Below are positions 6,001 through 15,000 of a stretch of 64,000 nt of DNA, in pieces. This DNA comes from Candidatus Micrarchaeia archaeon. GTDB taxonomy: Archaea > Micrarchaeota > Micrarchaeia > Norongarragalinales > UBA8480. Position 1 is the first letter of the stretch. Each line of letters begins with the position of its first letter. The stretch covers positions 1 through 64,000 of the forward strand of contig JBAMLY010000001.1 in NCBI GenBank assembly GCA_039794045.1, in the 5' to 3' direction. A program made the position numbers.

Positions 6001-9000
6001 CGCCTTCGAGACAAGCTTGGCGTCCGCAACGCATAAGTCGTAGTAATTCATGAAAACCCAAAAGAAATAAAATAAAAAGAAGAATAAAAACGAGTTACTT
6101 CTTCGCCGTCACCGCTTCTCCTGCCGCAGTTGCCGCGGGTGCGGCGGGCTTGGCTTGCGAGCGGGCTGGCTTTGAAGAGCAGTTGTTTTTGAGGACGACT
6201 TCGTAGAACGTGTTTTGACCGTCTTCTCCAACATAGTACGAGCCGACGACGTCGAGGTTAGGGTACCTGCGCGCGACTTTTTGTTCAGCGAACCACTGCC
6301 AGGACTTGCTTGGGTTTTCGCGCTTGCGGTTGCGGCCCGGCTTTCTTCCCTGGTCTGCTTTCTTGCGGACGCGCTTGCCTTTCTTCACGCGAACGCGGGC
6401 AACCACGAATTCCTTCTTGGCTTTGAAGCCGAGGCTCCTCGCTCGCGCTATGTTGGTTGGCTTCTCAATGCGAGTGATTACTGGTTGGTTGCGCCACACT
6501 GAAAGGCGGGCGCGGTATTCTGGCGCGCGTTCCTTGTATTGTTGCTGAAAAGTTTTTTGCACGTACTTATACATTCCCATCTTGTTTATCACCAGTTAAC
6601 GCGTTCAGGGCCGCGCTGCTTGCCGGGCGCCCGCAGCGTCGTTATCTTCCTACATCCGCGAAAAAAATTATTCCCCGAACTGTTTTTTGGCTCGGGCAGG
6701 GTTTTGTTCTGACTTGAACTCCTTTCTTTTCTTCGTGTTCGTCCAGCAGTCCTTGCAGATTACGCGGCGAATTGTTTTGGCGACGGTGCGCGAGCTCTTA
6801 ATGCAGGCGCGGCACACTTTCCTGCCACAGTAATCGCAGGCTTCTATGACGTGAGCGTCAGAACCACATCTTTCGCACTTCATTATTCAACCAACTCTCT
6901 TCATGAAAAGAAAAAACTTGAAAAAAAATTGGAAAAAGCTTTTCCTACTTTTGCAGCACTATCTCGACGGAAGTAACCTTCGTAGCGCGTCCGTCCATTG
7001 AGGTGACGTCCTCAGTTGAAACGTTGACCGACTTTATTTGCAGGGCTGGAAAGAAACGGTTTTTCACTATTTCTTCCACGTCGAAGGCAGTGCTTATAGA
7101 TCGCCCGCGCGCCTTGAGTTTGACTTCAGGCGAGCCAGTGTTGAACTGCGTTACGGCGGCTAAAACGTATGCCATTGTGTTCTTTTTGCCGACGTAAATC
7201 GTGTTTGGATCACGTGGGCCCACCTCGTGGCGTGGCACGCGCTGCATTGGCTGCCCTACAGGCTGTTCTTGTTCCATTGGTTGCTCCATGTTTTTCCACC
7301 CTTTTTCGCTTGTTTTGTGTTAATAGTTTTCCAGTGAACTTTCTGAATAACAGAATTGTTTTGAGTGCAAGCAAATAATAATATTTGGTTGCCTAAAACC
7401 ATCGTGGTCGCAATTGGTTAGAGTGAAAATAATTAAAAACGGCTCGCAGGAAGAACGAGTCTTGCGGCGCGCGCGCACGGTAGCGCAAGCGATTGCTTTG
7501 CTTGGCTTGAACAAGGAAACACTCGTCCCAAAACTCAACGGCGAGGTTTGCTCTCTCTCTGAAGAGCTCGGCGACGAAGATGAAATCGAATTAATTCACA
7601 TCATTTACGGTGGGTAACTTTGCACGGCCACGCGATAGCACACGAAATAATTGAGAAAGCAAGAAAAAAAGGAGAGCCAAAAGCAATCGAAGTAGAAGTA
7701 GGCGAACTCTCCACCATCACACCCTCAGAGTTAATGAAGTCATTGAAGCAGCACGTTAACTGGAAGGTCCGCATTTTCTACAGGAAAGGCGTCGTAGCCT
7801 GCGCGTGCGGCTTCAAAGGCAAGCCAAAAATACTGGCGCGGGAACACGACTTAGTGTTGTTTGCTTGCCCGAAGTGCGGCGCGGCCCCACAAGCAGTGAA
7901 AGGAAATTCAGTGTTCCTCAAGAAAGTGACGCTTGACGCCACGCCAACTTTCTTGGCCGTCGGAAACCCCTTGCTGGAAGGAGACTCGCTTGCGCTCGCG
8001 GCCTGCAAGCGCGCTTCAAAAAAAAGCAGTGCTTCCTTTGTTTTCTGCGAGAGCTTGGACGACTTGATGGAAGAACTCTCTGCAAGGGGAGGCAAAAAAA
8101 TAGTCGTTGACGCCGCCAAAGGAATAAGCAAGCCACGCCTCGTTAAACTAAAGGCGCTGAAGGCAGAGCCAGTTGTTGGAGCGCACTCCTTCGACGCTGG
8201 CTTCTTTCTCCGCTTGGCTGAAGCCGCAGGAGCCGCGCGCGGCGTGAAAGTGCTTGCCTTGCCTGAAAACTCTTCCTTAGACGATGCCGTGCACGCGGTT
8301 TTAAAAGCTGCGGGCGGAAAGCACCCCAAAAAGCGCTAGACCCTCTGCTTAAAAGAAGGCTTTCTCAGCTTCCTTCTCTCTTTTCTCTTCCGTCGCAGTT
8401 TCTTGCTCTTCAGCAAACCAGTTCACCTACTTGATTTTATTGAGTTTCAACTCTAAAAAGTGCGCGGCACAAGAAAAGCACGGGTCGTAAGCGCGCACGA
8501 GCTTCTCTATCTCTGCAACAAGTTTTTGCTTCGGCAAAGAGCGCCGAACTTGGTTCGGTGGCCCACCCGCCCGCTGAGCAGACGCTGAAGCTATCAATTC
8601 TCGCAGCAGCGCCTTCAAGTCTTCCTCGATGTTGCGAACGTTTTGCTGCGTAGGAGTAATAATTCTAGCATCGCGCACCATGCCGCGCTCGTCCAAAGAG
8701 TACTCGTGGTAAAGCACGCCGCGAGGTGCCTCGCTCAAAGCGCGTCCAGTAGCCTTCCTGAACTCCAGCGCGTGCAATGGCTCGACGCGAATTTTGGGAA
8801 TGAGTTCCTCAATCAATTCAGTTGCTTCGTCAAGAAAGTGAACTAATTCAATTGCTTGAGCGAAGTTGTTCGCAAAAGGAGTAAAGCTCGGAAAACGAAT
8901 GCTTGACTCTAGAGCCACTTCCCTCGCATCGTCAGACAAGAAAGAGAAATTGTTGTTTACGCGCGCCAGAGCACCGGTCAAGTAAGGCTTGCCGCCGAAA

Positions 9001-12000: not shown

Positions 12001-15000
12001 AGTCTTGCTCCTGCGATTCAAGTAATACTTGTCTTCAAAACCCCGAGAAAAAAACGCGTCTGTAACCGCAATCGCGGCCAAGTCGCAGGGGCGAACACCG
12101 AAAATCACTTGCTCGAAGTCACTGGAAACAGATTTCGTGACCGCGCCCTCTCCACCCAAAGAAAACTCGAGGAGCGGCTCGTGAGGAGGAAGCAAGAACT
12201 TCTTGTGCGAGTAATAAGTATTATGAGCAGTGAAAACCTCTTTTCCTGGCCTCCACAAAGAAAACTTGGTGACGCCGCCTTCCCTCGCGGGAGCAATAAC
12301 TTGCCTCGGCGTAGGCGAAACACGCAACGCGCTCAAGAACTCTTTGACTCTGCGTTTTTCTAGTGCGAGCATGAAAACCAATCTCGTTCGTTACTGCGCA
12401 ACAAAATAAATAAGTAATGCTGGCTCCCACTGCAGTCGCTTTCCAGCAAAGCCGCCCAGCCAAACCTACCCCGCTTTCCTGGAGAGCAACGCCGCACCCG
12501 CCTCAAACCAGCGAAGGCGATGCAACGCGAAAACAATCATTGCCACGCCAGCCACGAGCCCAGCAACCACGTAGAAAGCGCTCGCGTAACGCGCTGCTAC
12601 CAAGCCAAGCCAAGCAAGCAAGAAAGCACGCGGCAGAGTCCCAACGAAAGTAAAAACCACGAACTGCTTCAAGTCAAACTTGAGGACGCCGCTAGCTATA
12701 GAGAAAACCTTGTAAGGAATGAAAGGAATCAAGCGCGCAACTAGTATAGCGACTCCCCCGTACCTTGCAAACTTTTGTTCAGCGCGCTCCACTCTCTCAG
12801 GAGTGACGAGCAAGTAAGGCCCAACGCGTTTCACCACCGGGCGCCCGCCCCAAAAACCGATTCCATAACCAATCACCGAGCCAAGAGTGGAACCAAGGGC
12901 TCCCCATAACGCGACAGTCAAAGGATCAAAGCCAAGCGCTCCCGCAGTCACTAGGACGAGCTCCGAAGGAATGGGGACGAAAGAAGACTCCAAGAACATG
13001 CCGAGAGCAATGCCGAAACCACCAAAAGAAGCCATGAAGCCGTTTGCAGTGCTCACACCCCACTCCTGAAAGCCCTTGAAAACGCTGAAGAAAAAGTCTA
13101 TCATAACAACTCGCCACAAAAAAGAAGAAAAAAGAAAAAAGTTATTGGCAAGCACCTGAAGACGCGGCAGGAACGGAAGCGTTCACTTCCGCGCTGCACT
13201 CGGCTGGCGGCTTATTAAAAGCACTGCAAATCGCGTCCTTGAAAGCTGACGCCGAGCGCGCGCCCTCGTACTGCACGCCATTGATTACCAGCGTAGGCGA
13301 ACCAACCACGCCGAACTCTTCATCCAAGCTTTGCTCGGCCTTCAACAAAGATTCTGCCTCGCTTTCAAAGCACTTCGTCACGTTTTCAACGTCAATGCCC
13401 GCCGCCTTGGCAGCGTCCTTCCAACACGACTCAATGTTTTGCAGCGAGCACTTAGTGTTCACGTAATTATTGTATTCAAGCCACTTGCTTTCCTGGTACT
13501 TCCAAATGCAGAGCTGGCGCACGTCCTCCCTGACCTCGTTTATTCCGTGCATGGAGCAAAGAGTCCCGTTAGCGATGCAGTAGTCCGCGGCGTTACAACG
13601 GTTGCCAGCGCAGTAGTCAGAGTAAATCACGAACCTAGGCTCTACTTTAACCGCGGAAGCAAGCGCCTTCGCAACAGGATACATTATCTGCTGTGCCTGG
13701 CTACCATAAGGACAGAAGCTCATCACAAATAGCTTGACGTCAGGCTTGTCCGACTTCGGTATTTCCGCTGGCTTGGAAGGCGTGGGCGTCGGAAGCTCCA
13801 GCTTCTTGTTCAAGTCGAAAGCAGTGCCAACCAGCAAAGTGTTTCCGTCAAACGAAACATACGCCTCGGCAGGCTGCAGCGTCTCGTTGCCCTGCATTAT
13901 TTTGAAGGAAATCACGTACATTCCTGATTTCTCGCTGACATTAGACAACACCGCAGTCAAGCCGCGCGGCGACAAGAAGTTGTCGTTAATATAAGCAATC
14001 GCCTTCGCTGAAGCAGCTTCCTGAGAAATCTTGCTTTGCGCCGCTAATGCAACCGCGGAGCTCGCACTGGAATTGTATTGCAATGCTGCCGGCGCAGGCG
14101 CCGAAAGCGCAGCGAAAGCAAAGCCGATGACTATTCCTGCCACGAGGGCGGTCGCAATAAAAATCAATGCCTTGTTGGAGACTCCCTTTGCTGGAGCGGA
14201 AACAGCATGCTCGTGCAGCCCACGGTGAGACTCTGAGTGCTCTGCATGGTGCGTCTCATGGTGCGCTTCGTGCTCGTGATGATGTTCTTCAGTCAACCAA
14301 ACCACCTTCAACTAACTTGTTTGCTTTACAACTAGTAACATTAATGTTTTGCTTTACAAAATATAAAGGTATCATTAAGTGTAAAAAGTATCAGTGAGAA
14401 GCGCTTGAGGCGAACTAATTCAATGTCTTTCGTTCACTGCACGAAATGCGGGAAACGCGCGGTAGCCGACGTAGAGTACGCAGCAACAAGTTTGTGCGCG
14501 AAGCACTTCAATGAGTTCTTCGAGTCCAAAGTCCGCAAGGCAAACAAGGAATTCTCGGTGCTCAGGAGAGGCGACAAAATAGCTGTTGCAGTGAGCGGCG
14601 GTAAAGACAGCGCGGCAATGCTTTACTCGCTCAACGCTCTAGCGCGCAAGATAGGCGCAGTAGAACTCGCACCCCTTTTGATTGATGAAGGAATAGCCGG
14701 CTATAGAAACGAAGCAATAAAGAAAGCCGAAAAACTATGCGACCAGCTCGGCCTACACCTAACAATTGTTTCCTTCAAGGAAAAATACGGTAAAACCTTG
14801 GACGAGATAATTGCGGCGCGCAACCACAAGTGGAAGGACGAAGGCAAGCGCACTAAAGCCTGCTCGTACTGCGGAGTGCTTCGCAAGCGCAGCCTAAACG
14901 ACGCCGCACTAGAAATGGGCGCCAACAAGCTCGCAGTCGGCCACAACGCAGACGACTTAGCGCAAACGTTTTTAATGAACTTGATGCGAGGCGAGCCCAT

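Follow-up and report, generated by a model that had tools for sequence, protein, structure and literature searches.

A group 3b-type [NiFe] hydrogenase operon in a Micrarchaeia genome that keeps late-step maturation genes without a recognised gene set for the Fe(CN)2CO core

The hydrogenase locus of a Candidatus Micrarchaeia archaeon encodes a four-subunit group 3b-type [NiFe] enzyme, and the recovered genome contains only late-step maturation genes for it. Neither of two gene sets for the Fe(CN)2CO core is present: neither HypD/E/F nor the radical-SAM module (HydG plus a HypC-HydE fusion) of its nearest relatives. The explanation we favour, at roughly even odds (about 0.5), is that late-step maturation has been kept and the module lost, the Fe(CN)2CO unit coming from outside or from an unrecognised enzyme. 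The genome (G000) is a metagenome-assembled one of 655 kb, 92.12% complete and in 16 contigs; the window, that is, the whole stretch analysed, comprises 64,000 nucleotides (G000:C1:1-64000), and its coordinates are those of the contig. G000 was searched in six frames with profiles across its contigs, and relatives were represented by a sample of 41 genomes of the same order, G000 counted in. The features are as follows.

7423-7618, plus strand: small ThiS-family protein ending in Gly-Gly (PF02597, E 3e-9)
7620-8339, plus strand: g00015, 239 aa, TTG start, HypA domain and maturation endopeptidase domain
7620-7934, plus strand: HypA-like Ni-chaperone domain, g00015 residues 1-105 (PF01155; separate HypA genes in relatives)
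7932-8339, plus strand: predicted hydrogenase maturation endopeptidase domain, g00015 residues 105-239 (synteny, alignment, fold)
8427-9776, minus strand: [NiFe] large (alpha) subunit, group 3b type, 449 aa (PF00374 NiFeSe_Hases, E 5.8e-26)
9773-10564, minus strand: hydrogenase small (delta) subunit, 263 aa (PF01058 Oxidored_q6, E 8.5e-19; sulfhyd_ShyD, E 4.7e-47)
10574-11386, minus strand: gamma subunit, FAD/NAD(P)-binding and [2Fe-2S] domain, 270 aa (PF10418, PF00175 and PF00970; FAD/NAD/DHODB_Fe-S)
11383-12381, minus strand: beta subunit, AsrA-like 4Fe-4S protein, 332 aa (PF17179 Fer4_22, E 2.7e-27)
12466-13155, minus strand: VTT/DedA-family membrane protein (PF09335, E 3.2e-23)
C8:24711-24902: stand-alone HypC, the sole match in G000 (34.5 bits, over the cut-off)

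All four structural subunits match sulfhydrogenase subunit models, each under the equivalog cut-off (for the large subunit against sulfhyd_HydA, 262 bits where the cut-off is 880); in addition, the gamma subunit matches PRK08345 (E 1e-57) and the beta subunit both sulfhyd_HydB and sulfhyd_ShyB (E about 1e-51). The large subunit carries RICGFCSQAH at residue 59 and DPCFSCAAH at 431, the latter followed by a C-terminal extension of 10 residues (FLELKLNKIK). Its closest solved relatives are the group 3b alpha subunits 5yxy (Thermococcus kodakarensis HyhL, E 2.3e-69) and 9nez (Pyrococcus furiosus sulfhydrogenase 1 alpha), which belong to enzymes of the same alpha-delta-beta-gamma make-up. Both Cys-pair motifs are common to these proteins (residues 4-441 aligned, E 2e-69), as are the EAPRG and ITPT stretches, whereas the G000 subunit has roughly 25 additional residues inserted ahead of the C-terminal motif. 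The two Cys pairs and an extension of the FL.(V/L)K type are kept in 18 aligned large subunits of the order, and bacterial large subunits carry similar extensions in the alignment. Thus, an intact four-subunit group 3b hydrogenase with both Cys pairs and a C-terminal extension, as claimed in the initial annotation, is confirmed at 8427-12381 by ORFs, family matches and motifs, and by its intact subunits and motifs the enzyme looks functional. The Thermococcales group 3b enzymes depend on HypCDEF, in contrast to which G000, with its 10-residue extension, has no HypCDEF set, HypD, HypE and HypF not having been found.

The operon had also been given a start at 7423; this coordinate turns out to belong to the separate ThiS-family ORF, with 1 nt between its end and g00015. 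One relative repeats this gene order (L094:10554-10784). The ThiS-family protein probably stands outside the hydrogenase system and is likely to be the sulfur carrier for a TtuA-like thiolase at 14405-15364, where TtuA-like domains are found. On the other side of the locus, the VTT/DedA gene lies "directly downstream" of the beta subunit, and its cluster (c6) is found near the hydrogenase in G000 and five relatives (G001, G005, G006, G012 and G019).

g00015 combines two maturation functions in one polypeptide. Residues 1-103 match HypA PF01155 below the cut-off (E 5.2e-5, 23.7 bits against 28.9), and residues 1-107 match stand-apart HypA genes in nine relatives with E-values from 1.7e-33 to 2.4e-19; the separate gene of one relative reaches 44 bits on PF01155. 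Residues 108-230 correspond to a gene that in 19 relatives stands on its own beside the large subunit and is about 120-165 aa long. In an alignment of 13 endopeptidase sequences, G, D, D, H and P are invariant, and 10 of the 13 match PF01750, the G000 member not among them. A model of this half built by AF2 with an alignment reached a pLDDT of 80.9, and its top 11 Foldseek matches in the PDB are all hydrogenase maturation endopeptidases of the HybD/HycI type, which supports its prediction as a real enzyme of this class and bears out the earlier protease assignment. Among the proteins searched, the HypA-protease fusion was found in this species alone.

HypC, previously reported to lie elsewhere in the genome, was located on contig 8, where a TTG start yields an N-terminal Met-Cys. 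It is 46% identical to the HypC of G017 and 44% to that of G031, and 25-37% identical to the fused HypCs; judged by sequence, it belongs to the stand-alone kind. One alignment column holds Gln in G000 and in all 12 HypD-less HypCs and His in three HypD-associated HypCs.

The absence of HypD, HypE and HypF from the recovered genome was borne out by the six-frame searches. HypD and HypE gave no match at E<=10, and HypF gave just Sua5-like and Kae1-like parts (25.8 and 9.3 bits; cut-off 466); HypB, now searched for as well, had no match above its cut-off. HydG, HydE-like proteins and the radical-SAM part of the fusion left no fragment in six frames even at E<=10. The only CX3CX2C radical-SAM proteins of G000 are TYW1, an AmmeMemoRadiSam enzyme, an MtaB-like enzyme and Tes. 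Thus, compared with the canonical HypA-F pathway of Escherichia coli and T. kodakarensis, G000 shares HypA, HypC, the endopeptidase and the cleavable extension, and differs in that HypB, HypD, HypE and HypF were not found, HypA and the endopeptidase form one polypeptide, and HypC has Gln at the column mentioned above.

It is scarcely credible that HypD, HypE and HypF are present and merely too divergent for the profiles. G000 proteins are generally divergent, as the HypA domain under the Pfam cut-off illustrates, but HypD and HypE lack any candidate, the HypF-like matches are confined to the Sua5-like and Kae1-like parts, and the Gln of G000 HypC sets it apart from the three HypD-associated proteins. 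Moreover, the profiles work within the order, for in one genus of this family they recover canonical proteins, HypD at E 1e-131 to 1e-134 and HypD/E/F taken together at 1e-102 to 1e-228. Across the 41 genomes, a [NiFe] large subunit occurs in 21 and HypD in three, all of this one genus and two of them hydrogenase-bearing; HypE and HypF each exceed the cut-off in two. HypDEF was therefore found neither in G000 nor in 18 of the 20 relatives with a hydrogenase that were searched, in line with the initial annotation.

The nearest hydrogenases, those of the sister genus, accompany HydG and a HypC-HydE radical-SAM fusion, in genomes that lack [FeFe] hydrogenase, HydF and HypDEF alike. HydG, a tyrosine lyase, produces CO and CN. 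In four relatives (G001, G005, G008 and G035), each with a [NiFe] large subunit, HydG scores 335-521 bits (cut-off 312) and the fusion 218-259 bits, mostly just below the HydE cut-off of 254.6; none of the four has a PF02906 [FeFe] hydrogenase, a HydF over the cut-off or a HypD. The likeness to the HydE/HydF/HydG system of [FeFe] maturation thus lies in the over-cut-off HydG of the relatives and in the Cys motifs of the 42 HydGs described below, while the relatives differ from it in having no HydA, no HydF over the cut-off and a HydE-like part fused to HypC; G000 has none of these features. With the module-bearing systems G000 shares the hydrogenase clade, the HypA and endopeptidase companions and the HypC Gln, and it differs from them in lacking HydG and the HydE part and in its unfused HypC.

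The module is distributed far beyond the order. The HypC-HydE fusion is encoded in 299 stretches of species genomes, of which 80 loci were kept for a neighbourhood analysis with local HMMs: HydG lies within 8 kb of the fusion in 44 and a 3b-like large subunit likewise in 18, HydA occurs in one and HypD/E/F in none. One operon has the order beta-gamma-small-large-protease-HypA-fusion-HydG, and one locus carries a HypC-HydE-HydG triple fusion. All 42 adjacent HydGs that score at least 500 on the local HMM keep CX3CX2C and CX2CX22C. In G067, an archaeal genome assembled to chromosome level, large subunit and module occur together, with no HypD/E/F, HydF or HydA over the cut-off. Among the first 50 genomes with the fusion, PF00374 is present in 47, HypD in one and PF02906, marking an [FeFe] hydrogenase, in 11. 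The pair is found inside HypD-less [NiFe] operons of many bacterial and archaeal phyla, and we infer that it matures [NiFe] enzymes, although the [FeFe] hydrogenases in 11 of the 50 fusion genomes count against this. Because [NiFe] hydrogenases are present in 47 of 50 fusion genomes and HypD in one, HypDEF-free [NiFe] maturation appears to be widespread and not peculiar to the lineage of G000; the claim of a first case of HypCDEF-independent maturation among [NiFe] lineages is not supported, in view of the operons of the sister genus and these phyla. For the proposed "unknown Hyp-independent route", relatives hold a concrete candidate in HydG and HypC-HydE; G000 is without that candidate too. 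The sole mention found in the literature is a single sentence on an "unusual HydE-HypC fusion" in a 2026 preprint (10.64898/2026.04.11.717937).

Did G000 lose the module, or was it not assembled? If the module or another ligand-making set sat in the roughly 8% of the genome left unassembled or unbinned, nothing would be biologically missing. Each of the four relatives with the module carries it on short contigs, roughly 1.5 to 10.4 kb long (G001 contig 43, 10.4 kb; G005 contig 48, 4.9 kb; G035 contig 55; G008 split between contig 151, 1.5 kb, and contig 71), so it could have been missed in G000, itself 92.12% complete in 16 contigs; the other genes on the G001 module contig likewise have no homolog in G000. 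We nevertheless consider this unlikely. Even fragments of HydG and HydE are absent at E<=10, and G000 has a stand-alone HypC, while none of five fusion-bearing relatives shows a second, unfused HypC over the cut-off. Four more genomes of the same hydrogenase clade have HypC without HydG or HydE (G012, 90% complete in about 20 contigs; G017, 90% in about 5; G018, 91%; G031, 75%), and a genome of about 0.65 Mb, against 0.9-1.1 Mb in the sister genus, fits real gene loss.

Loss is also consistent with a large-subunit tree of 39 sequences from a quick IQ-TREE search (SH-aLRT support only), which places G000 beside the genus carrying the module as its sister (96) and HypC-only G017 as sister to module-bearing G035 (96). 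The bacterial sequences on it were chosen for an adjoining fusion and therefore bear a uniform module label by construction; within the order, module-bearing and HypC-only genomes are interleaved, which suggests repeated loss of the module. The terminal branch of G000 is long (0.82; the sister genus is about 0.53 from the shared node). Together with the ligand-making genes not found, this branch would fit a relic, in which alpha and delta have no working NiFe site and the operon decays or is kept for its beta/gamma oxidoreductase. Such a state is quite improbable, however, given that the four subunits, HypA-protease and HypC are all intact ORFs, that the Cys pairs, EAPRG, ITPT and the cleavable extension are retained, and that four further genomes of the clade keep the same kit; the retention of three dedicated accessory functions is not what one expects of a relic.

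A special case of the favoured explanation, and the stronger form put forward in the initial annotation, is that a host supplies finished Fe(CN)2CO or a loaded carrier and the cell itself performs the HypC, HypA and protease steps. Cultured Micrarchaeota live attached to other archaea, and the close relatives of G000 belong to this group; its very small genome (655 kb), the retention of late-step genes only and the recurrence of this pattern in two or more distinct branches of the hydrogenase tree are all compatible with supply. It remains rather doubtful: genes for a transporter or a contact apparatus do not accompany the operon, the DUF6390/EamA pair of other relatives is absent from G000, no host genome is known, and we know of no precedent for the transfer of a cofactor, organometallic ones included, between cells. 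A related case is that of archaeal [FeFe] hydrogenases without HydEFG, for which an alternative pathway has been inferred (Greening et al., Cell 2024, PMC11216029). Both concern a hydrogenase in small archaeal genomes without known maturases, but the enzyme class there differs ([FeFe] maturases), and in the part of that article available to us hypABCDEF appear only in a figure legend.

Under module loss, the preferred explanation, the early step in this hydrogenase clade, the addition of CO and two CN to iron, was probably never performed by HypD/E/F but rather by HydG and HypC-HydE, which the lineage of G000 would have lost and which other genomes of the order appear to have lost independently. 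As the recovered genome does not encode that step, the cell would obtain Fe(CN)2CO, or the ligands for it, either from outside (from a host, a partner or its environment) or through an enzyme that has escaped recognition. The stand-alone HypC would then deliver the iron unit, the HypA domain of g00015 would insert nickel, and the endopeptidase domain fused to it would trim the C-terminal extension of the large subunit, completing an NAD(P)-linked group 3b enzyme that may be active.

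The hydrogenase of the window is encoded by four genes that overlap or abut one another, all on the minus strand, in a genome (G000) of 655,099 bp in 16 contigs that is 92.12% complete and 0.03% contaminated:

11383-12381, minus strand: beta subunit, with a Fer4_22 domain
10574-11386, minus strand: gamma subunit, with FAD, NAD and [2Fe-2S] domains
9773-10564, minus strand: small subunit, Oxidored_q6
8427-9776, minus strand: large subunit, NiFeSe_Hases

The large subunit bears both the RxCGxCxxxH and the DPCxxCxxH motif (RICGFCSQAH at 59 and DPCFSCAAH at 431), the latter directly followed by FLELKLNKIK. 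The best NCBIfam models of the four subunits are those of the Thermococcales sulfhydrogenase, all matched well under the equivalog cut-offs, and among solved structures the large subunit is closest to two group-3b alpha subunits, 5yxy (E 2.3e-69) and 9nez, with residues 4-441 aligned. With an AsrA-like beta subunit, a flavin/NAD(P) gamma subunit and 3b alpha subunits as its closest characterised relatives, the enzyme belongs by its sequence with the group 3b hydrogenases and is expected to work like them; H2:NAD(P)+ activity with a NiFe(CN)2CO site is predicted. That it is a relic seems quite improbable. The operon is flanked by archaeal housekeeping genes (L15e, Alba, RNase P p30, proteasome alpha, SBDS, and L10e), and its gene order is common to G000 and the sister genus, which argues that it is native to G000.

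Two further genes lie beyond the beta subunit:

12466-13155, minus strand: VTT/DedA-family membrane protein, directly after the beta subunit
13142-14311, minus strand: 389-aa protein with a His-rich N-terminus and a thioredoxin/DsbA-like C-terminal domain

A VTT/DedA-family protein is found near the hydrogenase again in five relatives from three families. The 389-aa protein, encoded two genes downstream of the beta-subunit gene and kept in G000 and the sister genus, has about 15 His among its first 35 residues and one membrane span predicted by eye; it might bind metal. Farther along the window, a 497-aa protein with a RelA/SpoT synthetase-type domain (PF04607, E 7e-18) is encoded at 19418-20911 on the plus strand of this small archaeal genome.

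To our knowledge, all textbook accounts hold HypC, HypD, HypE, and HypF to be indispensable for every [NiFe] hydrogenase. When the entire G000 genome was searched in six frames, there was no match to HypD at E<=10, none to HypE and none over the cut-off to HypB, and the only HypF matches (25.8 and 9.3 bits, cut-off 466) fell on Sua5-like and Kae1-like ORFs. The absence of HypD, HypE, and HypF noted in the initial annotation is thus confirmed for this 92%-complete genome, in which the joint presence of the three proteins that marks the canonical HypCDEF route was not found. The accessory kit of G000 is a subset of the canonical [NiFe] pathway and differs from it in lacking these defining members.

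The same pattern extends through the order. Among 41 genomes of the order, G000 included, the large subunit is present at E<=1e-10 in 21, and HypC exceeds the cut-off in 15, 13 of which are hydrogenase-bearing. HypD occurs in three genomes of a single genus (two of them with a hydrogenase), and HypE and HypF exceed their cut-offs in two genomes each of that same genus. Twelve hydrogenase-bearing genomes without HypD, G000 among them, are at least 90% complete, and three of these are assembled in only 5 to 8 contigs, so chance omission cannot explain the pattern. Where the canonical genes are present, they are matched at E 1e-102 to 1e-228, which indicates that the profiles work in this order; that G000 has HypDEF in a form too divergent to detect is therefore extremely improbable.

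The order also holds a second hydrogenase clade (loci L101, L103, L104, L105, and L111), whose large subunits are 32-35% identical to that of G000 and whose short small subunits (153-176 aa) resemble the CPR-bacterial 'hyd2' form. Jaffe et al. (2020; PMC7304191) describe related CPR hydrogenases with a HypC-like neighbour, and the word 'maturation' does not occur there.

Several relatives carry what appears to be a different route to the iron ligands. In three of them (G001, G005, and G035), HypC makes up the N-terminal end of a longer ORF (about 430 aa) that continues as a radical-SAM enzyme with HydE as its nearest family (218-244 bits, cut-off 254.6); a fourth copy, in G008, is split at a contig end. 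The gene that follows the fusion encodes HydG, the CO/CN-making tyrosine lyase, with 513-521 bits in the first three genomes and 335 in G008, where it is partial (cut-off 312). All four genomes have the [NiFe] large subunit, and none has an [FeFe] hydrogenase, HydF over the cut-off, or HypD, HypE or HypF.

This module is widespread. When one genome per species was scanned, the HypC-HydE fusion turned up in 299 stretches, in records titled Micrarchaeota, Woesearchaeota, Aenigmatarchaeota, Altiarchaeota, Omnitrophota, Planctomycetota, Margulisiibacteriota/Saganbacteria, Atribacterota, Nitrospirae, Elusimicrobia, and others. Eighty of these loci were examined over flanks of up to 8 kb with local HMMs built from sequences gathered in this analysis: HydG lies beside the fusion in 44 and a 3b-like large and small subunit in 18, while HypD, HypE and HypF occur in none and HydA in one. 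All 42 HydG proteins scoring at least 500 with the local HMM keep the CX3CX2C and CX2CX22C motifs. Among five loci annotated with Pfam, one has an operon that encodes, in this order, the beta, gamma, small, and large subunits, the HycI protease, HypA, HypC-HydE, and HydG. At another, in a record titled Nitrospirae (L143, 8001-10832), one ORF of 943 aa is a HypC-HydE-HydG triple fusion; a 3b hydrogenase operon that includes a HycI protease lies upstream of it.

In whole-genome searches, 47 of the first 50 fusion-bearing genomes had PF00374 and 11 had PF02906; HypD was present in one, where it sits beside a different, high-scoring large subunit. One of the 50, a chromosome-level archaeal genome (G067), has the large subunit and the module, with no HypD, HypE, HypF, HydF or HydA over the cut-off. 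From these associations we infer that HydG and HypC-HydE supply ligated iron for these [NiFe] enzymes. The proposal that G000 would represent the first [NiFe] lineage matured without HypCDEF is accordingly not supported, since relatives and members of many phyla carry the HypDEF-free module in their [NiFe] operons. In the literature outside subscription journals and bioRxiv supplements, HypDEF-less [NiFe] maturation was found in one sentence of a 2026 preprint and nowhere else.

Catalytic domains of [FeFe] hydrogenases were found in seven of the 41 genomes (G013, G014, G023, G029, G033, G037, and G039). None of the seven has HydG over the cut-off, and none has a HydE-like match apart from G013, where hypA is followed by a HypC-HydE-like fusion cut at the contig end; the [NiFe] large subunit was not found in G013. 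These relatives fit a puzzle already in the literature, that of [FeFe] hydrogenases in archaea that have no maturases for them.

G000 itself has neither HydG nor a HydE-like ORF, and the fusion protein matches this genome over its HypC part alone. Among the CX3CX2C ORFs of G000, those with a match to a radical-SAM family are all housekeeping: TYW1, an AmmeMemoRadiSam enzyme, an MtaB-like enzyme, and Tes. Another candidate for the missing factor was an EamA transporter encoded side by side with DUF6390 next to the hydrogenase (or HypC) in seven relatives, with EamA alone in two more:

L112, 9174-9971 and 9913-10845: EamA/DUF6390 pair
L101, 9729-11391: EamA/DUF6390 pair
L102, L104, L105, L108, and L110: further loci with the pair

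DUF6390 has invariant Cys and His residues, and its AF2 model (pLDDT 86.3) is helical in the N-terminal half and forms a beta-barrel at the C-terminal side. The weak PDB matches of this barrel are ribosomal OB folds and, among them, HypC (2z1c_B and 3vyt_A, E about 0.03). G000 lacks the pair, which was rejected as the missing factor.

What G000 retains is HypC, HypA, and an endopeptidase. HypC has one six-frame match in the genome (contig 8, 24711-24902; 34.5 bits against the PF01455 cut-off of 28.5). Its ORF begins M-L-L-C-L-A-V-P-G, and a TTG start two codons in would give M-C-L-A-V-P-G with the usual Met-Cys start. HypC proteins that partner with HypD have a conserved His (His51 in E. coli). 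At this position the HypCs encoded beside HypD have His (3/3), whereas that of G000 and the 11 other HypD-less HypCs aligned, fused or free, all have Gln (12/12). The G000 protein is 46% identical to the stand-alone HypC of G017 and 44% to that of G031, against 25-37% to the fused HypCs, and is by this comparison of the stand-alone kind. Two ORFs of 175 and 129 aa beside HypC on contig 8 were also considered; they match no Pfam family and are unlike the ORF beside the HypC of G017.

HypA and the endopeptidase are joined in one protein, g00015, which is preceded by a small ThiS-family gene:

7423-7618, plus strand: ThiS-family ORF of 64 aa with a Gly-Gly end (PF02597, E 3e-9), stopping one base before g00015
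7620-8339, plus strand: g00015, TTG start, 239 aa, HypA-like domain fused to an endopeptidase domain
14405-15364: TtuA-like PP-loop thiolase, 7 kb from the ThiS-family gene

The N-terminal 103 residues of g00015 score 23.7 bits with PF01155, under the cut-off of 28.9. The same residues match stand-alone HypA genes (about 110 aa) of relatives with E-values as low as 1.7e-33, and one of these genes scores 44 bits on PF01155. HypA proteins are characterised by an N-terminal Met-His nickel site and two Cys pairs for zinc; g00015 starts M-H-G-H and has CAC...CPKC, its first pair being CxC and not CxxC. For residues 108-230, the counterpart in 19 of the 20 large-subunit-bearing relatives is a separate gene (about 120-165 aa). 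This gene adjoins hypA in the sister genus, which suggests that G000 fused two neighbouring genes.

The assignment of the second domain as a protease, previously based on weak hits, is now supported by several lines of evidence. Across 13 aligned members of the family, G, D, D, H, and P residues are invariant. Hydrogenase maturation endopeptidases have three acidic or His metal ligands, and D18, D60, and H85 of the domain, invariant in 13/13 sequences, are presumably these positions; D18 and D60 align with the GN..DD and DA stretches of the hydrogenase endopeptidase 5ija, which is the best PDB match of the family profile (E 0.009). Ten of the 13 members match PF01750 weakly (best E 2.1e-4); the G000 domain itself does not, and a six-frame PF01750 search of the whole genome gave no match. 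A model predicted by AF2 from the alignment (pLDDT 80.9, pTM 0.76) has the endopeptidase fold, with Foldseek PDB ranks 1-11 all being hydrogenase maturation endopeptidases or a close homolog (E 5e-5 to 2e-3, TM 0.49-0.65). The fusion also proved as singular as originally described: among 5.8 billion proteins of near length, it was seen only in its own cluster of three member sequences, in a search that relies on shared words and a length window.

The ThiS-family gene lies directly upstream of hypA both in G000 and in G005. TtuA-like thiolases use a ThiS-type carrier, and the Gly-Gly protein and the thiolase at 14405-15364 are probably a tRNA 2-thiolation pair. Given this thiolase, and a gene order common to only one close relative, the ThiS-family gene is unlikely to be a maturation factor and is probably unrelated to the hydrogenase.

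In a quick IQ-TREE phylogeny of 39 large subunits, with SH-aLRT support only, G000 is sister to a module-bearing genus (96), and HypC-only G017 is sister to module-bearing G035 (96). Module-bearing and HypC-only genomes thus interleave within a clade of nine, and by this tree the G000 hydrogenase appears to belong to the clade served by the module. The bacterial sequences in the tree were picked through the fusion, and so their module label carries no weight. The interleaving is most simply read as repeated loss of the module, the hydrogenase, HypA, protease, and HypC being retained.

It may also be that G000 has the module and the assembly missed it. The module lies on short contigs in all four module-bearing relatives, and the remaining genes of the G001 module contig have no homolog in G000 either. 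Both observations speak for such a gap; all the same, we think it unlikely. Synteny did not help as a test: a homolog of the IPP-isomerase-like neighbour of the G005 module lies 172 bp from the start of G000 contig 7, and the next gene on this contig is convergent, unlike the order in the relative, which makes the homolog uninformative. We favour, at a probability of about 0.5, the reading that the absence is real and secondary, and that the iron unit has an external source or is made by an unrecognised enzyme. A more specific and rather doubtful proposal is that G000 and several independent relatives outsource the organometallic half of [NiFe]-hydrogenase maturation, taking Fe(CN)2CO or its CO and CN ligands from a host or partner cell; the Gln-type HypC, HypA, and the endopeptidase alone would then be kept to install the iron unit.

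The case of G000 parallels that of archaeal [FeFe] hydrogenases that occur in the absence of HydEFG and are inferred to have an alternative pathway (PMC11216029).

HydG and HypC-HydE inside the [NiFe] operons of the relatives form a coherent HypDEF-free alternative in which tyrosine would be the origin of CO as well as CN. For anaerobes, no source of the CO ligand has, as far as we know, been established. G000 goes one step beyond its relatives in keeping the installation steps alone, and its four structural genes, HypC, and one HypA-protease fusion make up a minimal set of genes that could be tested in a heterologous host. Should the absence be real, there is either a third way to make the iron unit or a cofactor acquired from another cell. 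Such acquisition, if true, would mean that ultra-small symbiotic archaea are metabolically dependent in a new way, and it would be the first dependence on another organism for a hydrogenase cofactor.
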